From Octopus vulgaris (Eukaryota), in assembly GCA_951406725.2 (NCBI GenBank), contig OX597821.1, forward strand, positions 50,034,001 to 50,098,000: a DNA stretch of 64,000 nt, written 5' to 3'. Numbering within the stretch: the stretch's first letter is position 1; the number at the start of each line of letters is the position of its first letter. The notes beneath the pieces were generated by a model, which was given only the letters and a program-made list of their open reading frames with translations, made no database searches and had not been told where the DNA came from. Below are positions 7 through 62,000 of this stretch, in pieces. The position numbers and the translations under genes were made by a program.

Positions 7-175
<169 letters not shown>

Positions 176-177
176 TG

Positions 178-1500
178 CTTTTTTCATTGGCCAGAAGGGC
201 CGAAAACAAAACTAAAAGAGACTAAAAAACACATCGGACAACTGGGGCTTAGCACAAAAGTTGGTGTATAAAAAACATTAAACAAAACCAATTAAAAACA
301 AAATTCAAAATAAAATTCCCCACAAGGAGAGAGTTCCACCCAGGGACAACCGAGTAACTCCTCACATGCTGTTTACCCTGATCAGCAGGTCCTTCTCTCT
401 TTCTCAACAGCTCCGGCTTACAAGCGAATATAGGCCCATTTACACGGGCCATCCTCACCACATTCACCCACCTTGCAATAAAAATACAAGGGAGAAGCAG
501 TACTTTCCTCTCCACCCTCCCTTTACTTTTCAAGTGAAATTTGAAAAAGTCGATGAGGGCTTGGCCGAAGAGGAGGGCATCTCTTTGCAGTCCTTTCAAC
601 TTCGTCTCCCACATTATCTCTTTCGCCATAGCCACCGGACAGAGGAAAACTGCCTTCTCTTCCCGGCCAAAGAAGGCGGTGGGCGATTTTCACGATGGAT
701 TCAGCTGATAACCGGATCCATCTTACACGCGCCAACAGTTGTTCGACAAAGCTCTACAGGTCAGCAGTGCCTGGAAAATGAACGAGAGCACTCAGCGGTT
801 TCGTCGCTCTGCGCACATCTCAGACTGGTCGGTCTGACTGTACTTCCGTGTCTGTAGAGCTTGTTTCAAACCAGCAGAACCCCCGGTAGCACTGTCAGGC
901 CTGAGATTTCTGGAAATTATCCGTCGACTCCAGCCCGAAAGTCCTCCAGAAAAACCAGCTAATTGACTCTTCCCGACGCCCAGAGTTTCCCCGAGGACGT
1001 AGTCGCACTCGCCCACCACTAATTCCCTACAGAACTCCAATGTGGAACTTCTATCGACTGCACTGACCGACTGGCACAGTACAGTGAGCGCTTGCCGACA
1101 CCCCAGTTGCCAAGCCCCTTTTCTTAATCTATGCTTAATCCAGAATTGTAGCTCTGTCAATGAGACGAGCTGCGGAAGCCTACCGACTTGTCCTAATTAA
1201 TCTTTGCTCCTGTCATTGCTTCGTATTCCCTTAAGCTCGATTTCCGAGCTGTCCGACACAAAGCTTCTGCATCCTAGTTCACGTAGTATACTTCTCGAAA
1301 TATAAAACTTCCGTTGTAATGGCTAGAAAGCCAGCACGTACAGAAGGGGCAAGAGTGGACATCCTTGATGGACCGAACGAGCGACGCTAAACAATTCCGA
1401 TAAGTGGCCACTTACTTTAACCACCGAACAAATGTCGTTGTACGCTGCAGCGATTTAGCCTCTGAAAACGGAACCGAAACCGACCGCTGTGACCTCCAAA
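178..1500 (-). mobile_element. Decayed L1/Tx1-like non-LTR retrotransposon, ORF2 pieces (RT to C-terminus)
   Basis: Minus-strand translation of ~1320-1500 gives GFGSVFRG*IAAAYNDICSVVKVSGHLSELFSVARSVHQGCPLLPLLYV, matching the RT QGCPLS motif. The C-terminal ALIDFFKFHLKSKGRVERKVL (ORF 249..635) is similar to the copy at 29451-29798. Stops and frameshifts are present. Confidence 0.8.
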
Positions 1501-1899
1501 CGTCTGAAGAAATCTGGCTGCCCTGCTTCAGTTGGGGTATACATAGCGAGTAGTTTAAAAGCACCACCTTCGCTAATGCTCATCTACGACTACCAGCTTA
1601 TCTTCCGGGTCCAGGAAGATCGTCCGTACCTCGAGATCCAGACCTTTCCTAAACAGCACTTCCACCCTGCCTCCCATTCCAGGCTGACTAAACAATGTGT
1701 AGATCACAAAATTACTGAAGAGGGGGTTAGATCACGTGTATCGGAAATCCTGGTTTCGCCTAACAGCCGTCTCATCCATAGCTATTGATCTGAGGTCGTT
1801 GAGCAGGCGACCTTGCTTCTAGGGCGATCCCAGGCCACGACTATGTGTACAACCTACAATTAAACCTATCATAATGACCGGACAGTGTTTGAAGAATAA

Positions 1900-2728
1900 A
1901 TAAACCGCTGGCGGGCGGTTCAACCTGAAGAAAATTCAAACAGGGTCCTACTTTCAAGGTCATGCGCTATTCATCTTGATATGAGATCACATGGTCACGC
2001 ACATGTGGTTGTAATGTATGTGCTTGCTGTATCCTTATTAGACGTGTGGTCATGATGGGTATATTGGGCTTCATATATCTGTGCCCCAGTGTCACTTTTA
2101 TGGCATGCATTGCTCTCTTTCACTCAATAATAATAATAGTAATAATAATAAGTATAAAAAGATGGCCTACAGCAAATATTTTACTCAATATCACCATGCT
2201 TTGATGCAGTACTAGGCAGAGGCTCTCATGGCTTCTGATCTTAACTGATTGGAAGTGTTATCATGTTGTCTTGGTATAAAAAGATGGGCTACAACAAATA
2301 TTCTGCTCAATACCACAGATTTGCTTGTCAGTTGTTTGACCTTAACCAGTTGAGCATGTCCCTTAGTGGCTGATGATATGTGCAGAAATAGTGGGGAAGC
2401 ATCATAGCCATGTGTTGAGAGGAATTCTTTGGTGTTTGAACAATTCACCTTTGGAAACATGGTTGTTTTGTTCAATATCCTTAAACAACCTTTCTTCGGG
2501 GATCTTTTGAGCGGGATGGGCTACTTGACCTCAAGTAAATTCTAACTGGGCCCCCACCTGCAAGGTCATGTGCTGTTTATCTTGATATGATATCACTATG
2601 TCGCGCACATATGGTTGTAATGCATGTGCCTGGCGACCCTTATCGGACAGGTAATAATGATGAGTATACTGGGCTTCATACATTTTACGCCAGTGTCACG
2701 TTGATGGCATGCACTGCTCTCTCACTCA
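1900..2728. repeat. Interspersed repeat in two partial copies, each abutting an AAT tract
   Basis: ~1955-2127 aligns with ~2562-2728 (caaggtcatg...gcatgca.tgctctct..cactcaat), and 2153-2195 aligns with 2274-2315. Family not identified. Confidence 0.65.
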
Positions 2729-2752
2729 ATAACAACAACAACCACAACAATA

Positions 2753-2806
<54 letters not shown>

Positions 2807-3610
2807 GACAAAGAAAAATCCCAGCAATGGTTGATAAGCTCAGGACTCAAAGCAGAAACAGAGGGATTTTTAATTGCAGCACAAGACCAAAGCCTCCCCA
2901 CCAGAAATTACCAAAAACATGTAATGAAAAGAAATATTACAAGTAACTGCAGAATATGTGGAGATGGACAAGAAACAATAAATCATATTATCTCTAGCTG
3001 CCCAGTCCTGGCGAAAAAGGAATATATTCACAGACATGACAGAGTTGGAACCTACATACATTGGAAGCTATGCCAACATTATGGAATAACAACAGAAAAA
3101 AGATGGTATAGGCACACACCAGAAAAGGTCACAGAAAACGACAAAGCAACCATACTCTGGGATATGCCGATACACACAGATAGAGAAATTAAGGTTAACA
3201 GACCAGATATAGTTGTCAGAGATCATGAAGGAAAAAATGCTTTCTAATTGATGTATCAATACCGGCAGATGACAACGTGTCTCTAAAAGAAATGGAGAAA
3301 CTCTCAAAATACAAAGACCTGGAAATAGAGGTAACTAGAATGTGGAATCTGAAAACAGAATCAATTCCTATCATAGTAGGTGCATTAGGCATGATAAAAA
3401 AATATTCAGACAAATACATAACAAAAACACCAGGACTTACAAACACATATAACATACAGAAGATTGCACTACTAGGCACTGCACACATCCTACGCAGAAC
3501 ACTTTCCATACAATAACCATCAGAGCATCACAACAAATCACAGCACATACCCAAGGCACACAGAGCTGCGCTCGGTAGTGAAGTGAAAGCACGCTATAAA
3601 AATAGAACTA

Positions 3611-3613
<3 letters not shown>
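2807..3613 (+). mobile_element. 5'-truncated R4/Dong-clade non-LTR retrotransposon (CCHC finger + restriction-like endonuclease + 3' UTR)
   Basis: ORFs 2831..3247 and 3277..3516 contain AAQDQ, CRICGDGQETINHIISSC (CX2CX7HX4C), RHD, ILWD, RPDIVV, LIDVSIP and EKLSKYKDL. One frameshift near 3235. (AAT)n on both sides. Confidence 0.92.
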
Positions 3614-3673
<60 letters not shown>

Positions 3674-3679
3674 TTTTTT

Positions 3680-3898
3680 ATTATAGGCACAAGGCTAGAA
3701 ATTTGGCAGGAGGAGGACTAATTGATTACGTCGACCCTGTGCTCAAAGTCGATGAAGGTGGTTAATTATTTCATCGACCCGAAAGGATGAAAGGCAAAGT
3801 CCGCCTCGACTGTATTTGAACTCAGAATGTAGCGACAAACGAAATATCCGCTAAGCATTTCATCCAGTGTGCTAACGATTCTACCAAATCATCGTTTA

Positions 3899-3932
<34 letters not shown>

Positions 3933-4240
3933 CAATGACAACGACGATGACGACGACGACTATAATGACGAACTGAAGTGGGAAATACGCAGGTTGCAGG
4001 CAATGAAGAAAATGGATGTGATACCTATAGCGATTGGTGCTCTTGGAAAATATCAGCACCCAACTCCCAGCATGGCTTTAAAAAGATTGGAAAGATACAA
4101 CGCCTACAAAAATCCTCATTACTTGAAACTGCAAGAGTCCTCCGCAGGGTTCTTGAAGCATAATCAGTAAATAAGTATCACCTTAGTCAGCAGGTTGTGA
4201 ACAACTAACAAAATAAAGCTAAGATTTTTCATGATGTACT

Positions 4241-4277
<37 letters not shown>

Positions 4278-4945
4278 GCAACAACAACAACAACAACAAT
4301 AATAATAATAATAGTTTCAAATTTTGCCAAAAGGGCAGCAATTTTGGGGGACGGTATGAGTCGATTACATCGACCCCAGTGTTTCACTGGTACTTAATTT
4401 ATCAAACCCGAAAGGATGAAAAGCAAAGTCAACCTCGGCGGAATTTAAACTCAGAACGCAACGGCGGGCGAATAATAACAACAACAACAATAATAATAAT
4501 AATTTTTGGCACAAGGCGAGCAAGTTCAGAGAAGGAGCCTAGTCGATTACACCAACCCCACTGCTCAACTGGTACATATTTTATGGAAGCCCAAAAGGAT
4601 GAAAGGCAAAGTCGACCTCGGTATAATAATCATAAATAATGTTCTTAATTTAAACACAGGGATAGAAATTTAAAGTTGACATAACTGGGATTTAATTTCA
4701 ACCGTTTTTCTTTAAAATAATGTTAAAGTCGGCAAACTGGCAAAACCGTAATCATACCAGACAAAATGCTTAGCGGCAATTCTTCCGCCTTTACTTTCTG
4801 AGTTCATTCAAATTCCGCCTTGGTCGACTTTGCTTTTCATCCGTTTGGAGCTGATAAAATAACTACTAGTTCAGCGCTGGGGTCAATCGTCTAGCCCCAC
4901 ACCCTCATAAAATTTCAGGCCTTGTGCCGATAGAAGAAATATTTA
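3680..4945. mobile_element. Cluster of tRNA-derived SINE family A copies (mostly minus strand; plus copy ~4730-4940)
   Basis: Repeated core cgaccccgaaaggatgaaaggcaaagtcgacctcggcggaatttgaactcagaac, the reverse complement of the intact copy at 30707-30937. Confidence 0.8.
3975..4240 (+). mobile_element. Short 3' relic of an RLE-type (R4-like) LINE
   Basis: Frames give DVIPIAIGALG and LQKSSLLETARVLRRVLEA*, which resemble the C-terminus of the 2807-3613 element. It lies between trinucleotide tracts. Confidence 0.6.
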
Positions 4946-48758: not shown

Positions 48759-49175
48759 GACGGCGAGCTGGCAGAAACGTTAGCACGAAATGCGAAATGC
48801 GTAACCGTATTTCGCCTGTCGTTACGTTCTCAGTTCAAATTCCGGCGAGGTCGACTTTGCCTTTCATCCTTTCGGGGTCGATAAATCAAGTACCAGTTAC
48901 GCACTGGGGTCGATATAATCGACTTAATCCGTTTGTCTGTCCTTGTTTGTTCCTTCTGTGTTTAGCCCCTTGTGGGTAGTAAAGAAATAGGTATTCCGCA
49001 TGCCGTTATGTTCTGAGTTCAAATTTCGCCGAGGTTGACTTTACCTTTCATCCTTTCGGGGGTTGATTAAATAAGTACCAGTTACGCACTGAGGTCGATG
49101 TAATCGATTTAAGCCCTTTGTTTGTCCTTGTTTGTCCTCTCTATGCTTAGCCCCCTGTGGGTAATAAAGAAATAA
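48759..49175 (+). mobile_element. Two tandem SINE family A copies
   Basis: Both match 30707-30937. The second copy is 5'-truncated. Confidence 0.9.
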
Positions 49176-53131: not shown

Positions 53132-53445
53132 CACACATATTTATGTATGTATTATGCATGTATGTATGCATATATATATGTGTGCGTGTGTGTATGTATA
53201 TATATATATATGTATATAATTAATCAATATAGGGTGGCAAAAAAAAATTTTGTAGAATTCTTTTGCCACCAGCGGCCTAGTGGGAAAAAATTAAATAGTC
53301 ATAAACCATTTTTAAGTTCAACATCACAATCAAGGAACGGCCATAATAGGCCATTCACCCACTAGAAATAACAGCCAAAAGCTTTAACCGCAAAATAACA
53401 TCAATTCCGTAAACCAGGAGAAAATTAAAAAACATTTACCCTGTA

Positions 53446-53552
53446 ATTTCTTAGACGATGCATCGTTTCATCTACTGTTTAATGGTAAACTAACCTGATT
53501 AAATTAAATCAAGCCAATCTACCATAGGCCCTTAGATTCATCAGTAAGAAAT
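53446..53552 (-). ncRNA. Type I hammerhead ribozyme (inverted copy)
   Basis: Reverse complement of 53861-53967, with TCATCAG at 53538-53544. Confidence 0.88.
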
Positions 53553-53860
53553 AGCCAAGTCAGAACAGATATTTTCCACGAGGCATTCTCGTTGCTACCT
53601 CGGCAATATCTGACCTAAAATTTTCAAATCGTCGCACTCGCGCCAAATTTATCGGCAGCAAATAAATATAAGCCGCCGATTCCATTACGGAATTAACCAG
53701 AAAATTCATAATTAATCAATATAGGGTGGCAAAAAAAAAAAATATATTTATTTGCTGCCGATAAATTTGGCGCGAGTGCGACGATTTGAAAATTTTAGGT
53801 CAGATATTGCCGAGGTAGCAACGAGAATGCCTCGTGGAAAATATCTGTTCCGACTTGGCT

Positions 53861-53967
53861 ATTTCTTACTGATGAATCTAAGGGCCTATGGTAGATTGGC
53901 TTGATTTAATTTAATCAGGTTAGTTTACCATTAAACAGTAGATGAAACGATGCATCGTCTAAGAAAT
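53861..53967 (+). ncRNA. Type I hammerhead ribozyme
   Basis: Stem I atttctta/taagaaat (8 bp), CTGATGA 53869-53875, stem II atcta/tagat, GAAA 53944-53947, stem III cga-tgca-tcg, GTC 53957-53959. Predicted cut after C53959. Confidence 0.9.
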
Positions 53968-54355
53968 TACAGGGTAAATGTTTTTTAATTTTCTCCTGGT
54001 TTACGGAATTGATGTTATTTTGCGGTTAAAGCTTTTGGCTGTTATTTCTACTGGGTGAATGGCCTATTATGGCCGTTCCTTGATTGTGATGTTGAACTTA
54101 AAAATGGTTTATGACTATTTAATTTTTTCCCACTAGGCCGCTGGTGGCAAAAAGAATTCTACAAAATTTTTTTTTTTGCCACCCTATATTGATTAATTAT
54201 GAATTTTCTGGTTAATTCCGTAATGGAATCGGCGGCTTATATTTATTTGCTGCCGATAAATTTGGCGCGAGTGCGACGATTTGAAAATTTTAGGTCAGAT
54301 ATTGCCGAGGTAGCAACGAGAATGCCTCGTGGAAAATATCTGTTCCGACTTGGCT

Positions 54356-54462
54356 ATTTCTTACTGATGAATCTAAGGGCCTATGGTAGATTGGCTTGAT
54401 TTAATTTAATCAGGTTAGTTTACCATTAAACAGTAGATGAAACGATGCATCGTCTAAGAAAT
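54356..54462 (+). ncRNA. Type I hammerhead ribozyme (second tandem copy)
   Basis: Same sequence 495 nt downstream, with CTGATGA 54364-54370, GAAA 54439-54442 and GTC 54452-54454. Confidence 0.9.
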
Positions 54463-54580
54463 TACAGGGTAAATGTTTTTTAATTTTCTCCTGGTTTACG
54501 GAATTGATGTTATTTTGCGGTTAAAGCTTTTGGCTGTTATTTCTAGTGGGTGAATGGCCTATTATGGCCGTTCCTTGATT

Positions 54581-54655
<75 letters not shown>

Positions 54656-55377
54656 GTGTGTGTGTATGTATGTATGTATGTATATAACTACTGCGTAGTT
54701 TATCTAATTATGTATGCATGCAAATTCGTATATGATTACGTAGTTTGATCACTTGTACACATGCATATAATTGCATGTACATTTCTCTCGTATGCACGTG
54801 TTTGCAAAATAGGTTTGCATGCAAGTTATTAGCTATTAGTAAATATAAATCCATTCCTGTGGTGCACAGAATTAAATCTGATGTCCACGAAGATGTTAAT
54901 ACTCTCAAGTTGAAGAGTTTTCTATTAGGCGGTGAGGTTGGATTTACGATGTGTTGCTGTGTTCTGTAATTTCAAACGTCATTGGAGTAAATATACAATT
55001 TATAAATACCATAATGACTTTATAGTCTTCAAATCCCCGCTCTAACATCATTTGCATTATCCACATAGATTACGGCTTATTTTAGATAGGTGACCACATG
55101 CCATGTCTTACTGATAAGAACAGGCATGACATTTTACTGAAATCTTCGATGTTTATATACATATATATTTCCCCTCGGACTTTCTTGTTTTTGCCTGTTT
55201 CTCAAGAAAAACTACGCTCGAAACGTAAAACAGCTACTCTCTTTCTTTTCTGAGTGTCTTATTAATATATTGTTTGTGCTTCGTCCTCACATTTGTTTGT
55301 TCTTTTCTTTTTCTCTCTGTTCTTTTTTATATATGTATATGTACGTGTGTATACGTATATATGTGTGTATTTACATA

Positions 55378-57997: not shown

Positions 57998-58015
<18 letters not shown>
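57772..58015 (+). CDS. Candidate 12-nt microexon (57772-57783) plus terminal exon (57921-58015) encoding a hydrophobic C-terminus
   Basis: tttttgtag|AGATCTTCGAAG|gtaaat, then tctctttgatttcag|CA ATG... The splice phases match and give IFEAMTQAFNKIGSGNVLYFWSLIVGVIVVYFMA*. No homology support. Confidence 0.3.

Positions 58016-62000
<3,985 letters not shown>

Follow-up and report, generated by a model that had tools for sequence, protein, structure and literature searches.

Non-LTR retrozymes of metazoans are tandem repeats of type I hammerhead ribozymes that are expressed as circular RNAs, their proposed helpers being Penelope-like elements (PLEs) (PMC7229834). Reverse transcription on a primed circle was put forward for these elements, without demonstration (Cervera & de la Pena 2020, PMC7229834). 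A recent preprint covering 35 species, none of them a mollusc according to its text, ties retrozymes to PLEs through co-occurrence and pLTR homology and proposes their local amplification (Li, Clavereau & Pollet 2026, 10.64898/2026.07.22.740005). A PLE insertion is described as a partial tandem accompanied by an inverted copy that is truncated at its 5' side; one end carries a tail of 30-40 bp, and insertion is biased towards microsatellites (Craig et al. 2021, PMC8557442). A purified PLE protein, predicted to be dimeric, cuts both target strands and extends them from two start sites within the RNA, which mark the borders of the tail; for this anole PLE in vitro, hammerhead cleavage was unnecessary, unprocessed RNA was used and the start site showed no difference between strands (Frangieh et al. 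2024, PMC11167929). The literature searched (outside subscription papers and Repbase) yielded no cephalopod retrozyme and no paired-end anatomy for any retrozyme. The main text of the octopus repeat annotation mentions neither ribozyme nor retrozyme, and its library may name the unit described here otherwise (PMC13282606). The retrozyme class is thus already known, and its genomic insertion footprint was not found in the literature searched.

The window analyzed here, a 64,000-nt stretch of Octopus vulgaris DNA, contains two head-to-head arms of a hammerhead-bearing repeat set between two microsatellites. Unit positions 1-495 are numbered from the base following the predicted cut at C53959, and the locus is laid out as follows.

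53138..53215, no strand: left target microsatellite, (TA/TATG)n
53216..53741, minus strand: left arm of 526 nt, covering unit positions 208-495 followed by 1-241; at its sense 3' end, site B (unit 241, ..TTGATTAATTAT) adjoins the left microsatellite
53446..53552, minus strand: inverted type I hammerhead, predicted cut between 53454 and 53453
53742..53743, no strand: head-to-head junction, where the variable 5' ends of both arms meet (at unit ~208 and ~279)
53743..54585, plus strand: right arm of 843 nt, covering unit positions 279-495, 1-495 and 1-131; at its 3' end, site A (unit 131, ..CCTTGATTGTGAT) adjoins the right microsatellite
53861..53967, plus strand: type I hammerhead 1, predicted cut after C53959; stem I 53861-68/53960-67, CUGAUGA 53869-75, stem II with an inserted 19-bp hairpin, GAAA, stem III
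53960..54454, plus strand: the only complete cut-to-cut monomer, 495 nt, non-coding
54091..54200, plus strand: 110-nt 'tail' running from site A (unit 131) to site B (unit 241)
54356..54462, plus strand: type I hammerhead 2; the predicted cut follows C54454
54586..54655, no strand: right target microsatellite, (AT)n

A first-pass annotation, made from the letters of the window, had recognized three type I hammerheads here, two plus copies 495 nt apart and one inverted, within near-identical tandem and inverted units that lie in a TA-rich microsatellite and hold no credible ORF. Each of these points was borne out: the coordinates agree, a strict hammerhead descriptor matched exactly these three places in the window and nothing in 30 shuffled windows or 5000 shuffled units, the inverted and direct arms are 99.1% and 99.9% identical to the unit and meet at 53742..53743, both flanks are TA-rich, and the longest stop-to-stop frame wholly within the repeat is 68 aa. 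The monomer, 495 nt in the window and ~492 nt in most family copies, is low in G+C (169 of 437 unmasked positions). Folding of 53960-54454 as a circle, a check that the annotation had suggested, predicted a branched structure with a circular MFE of -143.8 kcal/mol (z -6.0 against 40 shuffles) and 67% of bases paired. Elsewhere in the window, ~1027-nt units stand in tandem at 57998-62000, each with a long (AAT)n tract at its end; two 185-nt copies at 48807-49174 presumably resemble an octopus SINE, and a decayed stretch at 55170-55300 resembles what we take to be a PLE 3' end with a minimal hammerhead remnant.

On the unit, the descriptor found one match on the sense strand and 0 on the opposite strand, which does not sit with the 'viroid-like' label of the first-pass annotation. 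Stem II closes a ~58-nt loop that contains the 19-bp hairpin, and this long loop II is the likely reason why the Rfam covariance-model search, another check that had been suggested, detected no hammerhead family at the gathering score or at E<=10. Since this form of hammerhead escapes Rfam, such families are probably undercounted. The miRNA-like Rfam matches were rejected, as they fall below the gathering score and arise from the inverted repeat and the microsatellite. Stem pairing was assessed in 21 chosen haplotype rows, which represent few lineages and in which stem II of a sister family is imperfectly aligned; 96.4% of the stem cells pair across these rows. Within stems I-III, five pairs are altered on both sides (reached in 5 of 500 shuffles) and 11 cells are compensated (0 of 500 shuffles). 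The 19-bp hairpin of loop II is without compensatory change in the 21 rows, with 14 of its 19 pairs invariant and one pair broken in 13 of the 21; it rests on folding and conservation.

Array-fixed variants (104 at 89 of 437 sites) spare all 11 hammerhead core positions (chance 0.08); in one array, five of nine units carry a change of core G12. Position 7 (N7) varies among all four letters, position 17 between C and A only; the hammerhead tolerates such changes at both positions. Stem compensation and the variation at tolerated positions moderately support selection on the predicted hammerhead. No imprint of A-to-I editing was found among the array-fixed variants (A>G 20 vs T>C 19). Folding models add that the isolated window hammerhead has a non-catalytic fold better by 2.4 kcal/mol, that stem III has a probability of 0.02-0.03 in the circular ensemble, and that five of six variants folded alone, the window's included, have a non-hammerhead best fold, the variant of locus L099 being the one that folds as a hammerhead. 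It is plausible from these models that cleavage would be slow or assisted; the anole PLE hammerhead required protein (PMC11167929). The L099 array (18-4564) comprises nine units, ~90% identical to the unit, and runs past the edge of the sampled stretch; its stems are compensated and its MFE structure is the hammerhead.

To place the locus in its genome, 2.8 Gb were searched, and the loci sampled from it are labelled L with a number. A 20-mer from the loop II hairpin has 2,987 exact copies genome-wide (control 0); among the first 100 of these matches, counted by eye, all 15 two-strand clusters show the order minus then plus. A search with the monomer returned 1325 candidates, 40 of which were scored and gave 249 matches, and full-length monomer matches among those listed are 96-99% identical. 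These data support the unit as a young, dispersed multi-copy family. A sister family (L130-L149, e.g., L134:1375-2079), with 73-83% identity and a ~480-490-nt period, has both end sites and the TA target in common with the young family, and in it the hammerhead stems are compensated and the loop II hairpin is nearly invariant. A ~15-nt motif at unit positions 77-91 (window 54036-54050) recurs in several unrelated repeats (L112, L128, L150, L181); among them are a tandem of ~109 nt in L128 and, on the antisense strand, the UTR of a young PLE.

The ends of the insertions were compared in four sets: the window plus 39 places from the listed monomer matches (top-scoring set); 40 loci with an exact match to one end, sampled in list order; 20 loci anchored on the other end (B), in list order, at which the first pattern had no nearby match; and 20 sister-family loci, four of which were removed as duplicates. 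Site A was defined as unit 120-137 and site B as unit 230-246. The four sets hold 118 insertions, 95 two-armed and 23 one-armed, and in the two-armed ones the minus arm lies left of the plus arm. The pairing of ends is strict: 87 of the 95 combine A with B, none A with A or B with B, and eight have one end elsewhere. Nearly half of the A+B insertions (41/87) come from the two sets that were not chosen by an end, and all 87 have TA repeats on both flanks. Exact junctions genome-wide number 429 for A|TA and 854 for B|TA (reversed controls 0); the gap stems largely from the strictness of the pattern, because 13 of the 20 B-anchored loci have a slightly different A junction. Contigs from other public runs likewise contain TA after unit 131/132 and 238/241, together with the tandem joint, whose sequence is also the one that the joint of a monomer circle would have. 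Sites A and B each end in AT/TAT and are able to pair with the target.

Fixed sense-strand 3' ends combined with variable 5' ends are the trace of target-primed reverse transcription, and the A/B end pattern is the inverted-copy-plus-tail signature of PLEs, here with a 110-nt tail. The first-pass annotation had taken the partial-unit ends as a sign of rolling-circle copying; this reading needs revision, as the outer ends are two family-wide fixed priming sites, which points to the PLE tail signature and not to circular permutation, and only the inner ends vary. Of what it had proposed to look for genome-wide with the unit, the copy number and the compensatory stem changes were found and circularly permuted outer ends were not. 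Its broader view of a retrozyme-like, PLE-mobilized, young multi-copy element gains support from the 20-mer count, the two fixed ends and the TA target.

The two arms of an insertion resemble each other closely. At 38 diagnostic sites, paired arms carry the same variant in 274 of 279 comparisons, and an arm diverges by 0.32% from its partner vs 2.3% from the median other arm. In 12 of 54 insertions, both arms have variants in common that are absent from every other sampled locus, with the proviso that such 'private' variants may reflect sampling only, about 100 of roughly 1000 loci being covered. The inner ends lie within 10 nt of each other in 13 of 81 simple A+B insertions vs 4.1 by permutation (p 1e-4), a closeness that may come partly from annealing at palindromes. 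Both arms were likely copied from the same RNA molecule, and we go no further than likely because a single active donor per cell would also give this concordance.

A partner PLE was sought as well. No coding PLE frame (RT + GIY-YIG) is continuous with the unit at any sampled locus (window and the rest of the top-scoring set, both anchored sets and sister loci), and no autonomous partner sharing the unit was identified, one young PLE family having been compared. This family, presumably of Neptune type by its motifs, has 24,049 candidates, many of them 100% identical over 207 aa, and intact frames of 718-722 aa (L180-L182, L150-L179); it shows a ~5.2-kb tandem period, a head-to-head layout and a long conserved microsatellite-rich UTR. 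Atlas neighbours of its protein carry GIY-YIG, RVT_1 or HTH_animal, and Pfam and PDB searches with the protein returned nothing relevant. The hammerhead descriptor has no match in the family, and an 18-27-nt antisense motif, present in other repeats too, is all that it has in common with the unit. It was rejected as the partner, being without a hammerhead, sharing only that short antisense motif and having an A-like motif that is internal and not at an end; it stays a co-active candidate, linked to the unit by co-activity.

Several explanations of these insertions have to be weighed. Inverted repeats within a microsatellite are difficult to assemble, and the locus could be imagined as an artefact of assembly, or as ordinary satellite DNA in which a ribozyme-like motif has arisen by chance; however, hundreds of dispersed loci on many contigs have the same two ends, the contigs from other runs reproduce both ends and the tandem joint, the descriptor controls are 0 and the stems are compensated, so that this explanation is refuted at the family level and its probability is negligible. 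The unit might also be the pLTR or UTR of a coding PLE, present as 5'-truncated pieces, a concern already raised in the first-pass annotation and encouraged by a layout that matches PLE insertions (PMC8557442) and by a sample of about 116 loci. Yet arrays of up to 11 pure units hold no ORF, no PLE frame runs on from the unit in any sampled locus, and truncated coding copies are unable to yield multi-unit non-coding tandems in both arms; for the present copies, such an origin is largely refuted and very improbable. What then distinguishes the remaining explanations is how the tandem arrays arose. Arms are up to 11 units long. Of the 102 arms anchored at an end, 64 reach past the cut site, 23 of them by more than a full unit. 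Multi-unit arrays were mostly written at insertion, because the divergence among units of the same arm (0.417%) matches that between opposite arms (0.405%; 35 loci, p 0.64) and because 11 of 20 arrays of at least four units have single-unit changes only, partially shared variants being present in the other nine. The 36 arrays with at least two full units represent 24 haplotypes, so that new variants have spread to whole arrays time and again; this calls for a step in which one unit gives rise to many. The T475A variant, carried by three of the 11 units in one array and by every unit in both arms of two others, is what a single-unit step predicts. We lean towards a circle as the main source of multi-unit arms.

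The same step would be accounted for if twin priming took place on a linear ribozyme-cut monomer and the reverse transcriptase, on reaching its 5' end, jumped to a 3' end, whether of that monomer or of a sister; so would an excess of arm stops in unit 1-39, just past the cut site (23/135 vs 85/1404, p 2.5e-5, in the anchored sets, whose bins are non-independent; 9/180 vs 62/2064, p 0.18, not significant, in the top-scoring set). Judging by R2-type reverse transcriptases, however, end jumps would be expected to add or lose bases, and the cut-site junction is without indel in 174 of 174 cases, with a one-base indel at three of about 293 junctions counted by eye, none of them at the bond itself. 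A ligated circle or an uncut multimer fits this exact junction better than end jumps, and we regard jumping as improbable. Alternatively, PLE twin priming may always use a linear uncleaved or partly cleaved multimer, with unequal exchange in the DNA lengthening the arrays and making them uniform, the hammerhead doing no more than trim 5' ends and no circle being required. The excess of stops just past the cut site is expected from linear 5' ends and counts against a pure circle, and two of 76 unit-specific variants are in register in both arms (0.05-0.15 expected), which is incompatible with a monomer circle template. Periodic or clustered unit variants in the long arrays L048, L052, L056, L077 and L099, the dominance of one haplotype in the young set (18/40 loci) and the misfolded MFE of the hammerhead point the same way, as do the main substrate of the anole PLE, which was unprocessed RNA (PMC11167929), and the local tandem amplification proposed in the 2026 preprint (10.64898/2026.07.22.740005). 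Against an exclusively linear multimer, nearly one separately homogenized donor would be needed for each of the 24 haplotypes, 11 of the 20 long arrays are free of any sign of exchange, same-arm and opposite-arm divergence are equal, 74 of the 76 unit-specific variants are out of register, and T475A behaves as a single-unit step predicts; we consider it unlikely, though worth keeping in mind. The variants recur with period four in L056 (2268-7784) and period three in L077 (410-3933) and are periodic or clustered in L052 (2830-6705); either multimeric circles or later unequal exchange may have produced them. The arrays are best accounted for by several sources together: circular monomers, multimers and a measure of later exchange.

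Taken as a whole, the element is, in our judgement, probably a non-autonomous, non-coding retrozyme copied by a PLE protein, and this is the best explanation of the data. In the mechanism that we propose, an array would be transcribed through on the hammerhead strand, and the hammerhead would cut the transcript, probably slowly or incompletely, into monomers and multimers, the monomers being closed into circles by a host ligase, as in other retrozymes. A PLE RT-GIY-YIG protein, probably a dimer, would nick both strands of a (TA)n tract; the target is observed, and the enzyme is proposed. The two resulting 3' ends would prime on the same RNA at unit 131 and unit 241, where the end pattern is observed and the use of one molecule strongly suggested. 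Each reverse transcriptase would then run a variable length, often several rounds; its template would in many cases be a circular monomer and sometimes an uncleaved multimer, the data here suggesting a single-unit step and the circle being presumed. Both cDNAs would be joined head-to-head, often via a few overlapping bases, in the layout observed, and a minority of long arrays may have been reshuffled later by unequal exchange. We are highly confident in the twin-priming part, namely that both strands were nicked, that two priming sites on the same RNA were used and that the products were joined head-to-head. Only tentatively do we extend this to a single event per insertion, with a dimeric PLE enzyme placing both nicked TA strands on one circular RNA, at positions 110 nt apart, and two reverse transcriptases circling it to give head-to-head concatemers. 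If true, the insertions would be evidence, read directly from a genome, that a circular RNA is copied by rolling-circle target-primed reverse transcription, and one start site of reverse transcription could be assigned to each target strand.

How retrozymes return to DNA and how the tandem and inverted insertions of PLEs arise are both left open in the texts of the relevant sources (PMC7229834; PMC8557442; 10.64898/2026.07.22.740005). In the present family, young insertions number in the hundreds, their priming sites are exact to the base, the target is defined and the template is short; both questions thereby become testable, computationally across the genome and with a PLE protein in vitro. 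Its value lies in a countable footprint of PLE twin priming and in arrays written at insertion.

By its sequence, the element is a non-LTR retrozyme: like its metazoan relatives, it forms tandem non-coding low-GC units with one type I hammerhead per unit, is dispersed as dimers to multimers and is proposed to be mobilized by PLEs. Its ~492-nt unit compares with 170-400 nt (PMC7229834) and 51-972 bp (10.64898/2026.07.22.740005) in the described ranges. It differs from retrozymes as described in these sources in the 19-bp hairpin inserted in hammerhead loop II and in its two head-to-head arms, two fixed ends and TA target (PMC7229834; 10.64898/2026.07.22.740005). With viroids and viroid-like circular RNAs it shares its size, high self-pairing (67% paired) and a hammerhead, whereas the ribozyme is present on one strand only, the fold is branched and the element spreads by inserting into DNA; the sequence data gave no hint of RNA-RNA replication. 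Endonuclease-bearing PLEs have the same partial tandems, inverted 5'-truncated copy, one-end tail and microsatellite target (PMC8557442), as well as a hammerhead upstream of two internal start sites of reverse transcription (PMC11167929). In contrast to them, the octopus unit is without an ORF, its tail is 110 nt vs 30-40, both of its arms can extend to many units, and a strict pairing of one site per arm could be counted here.
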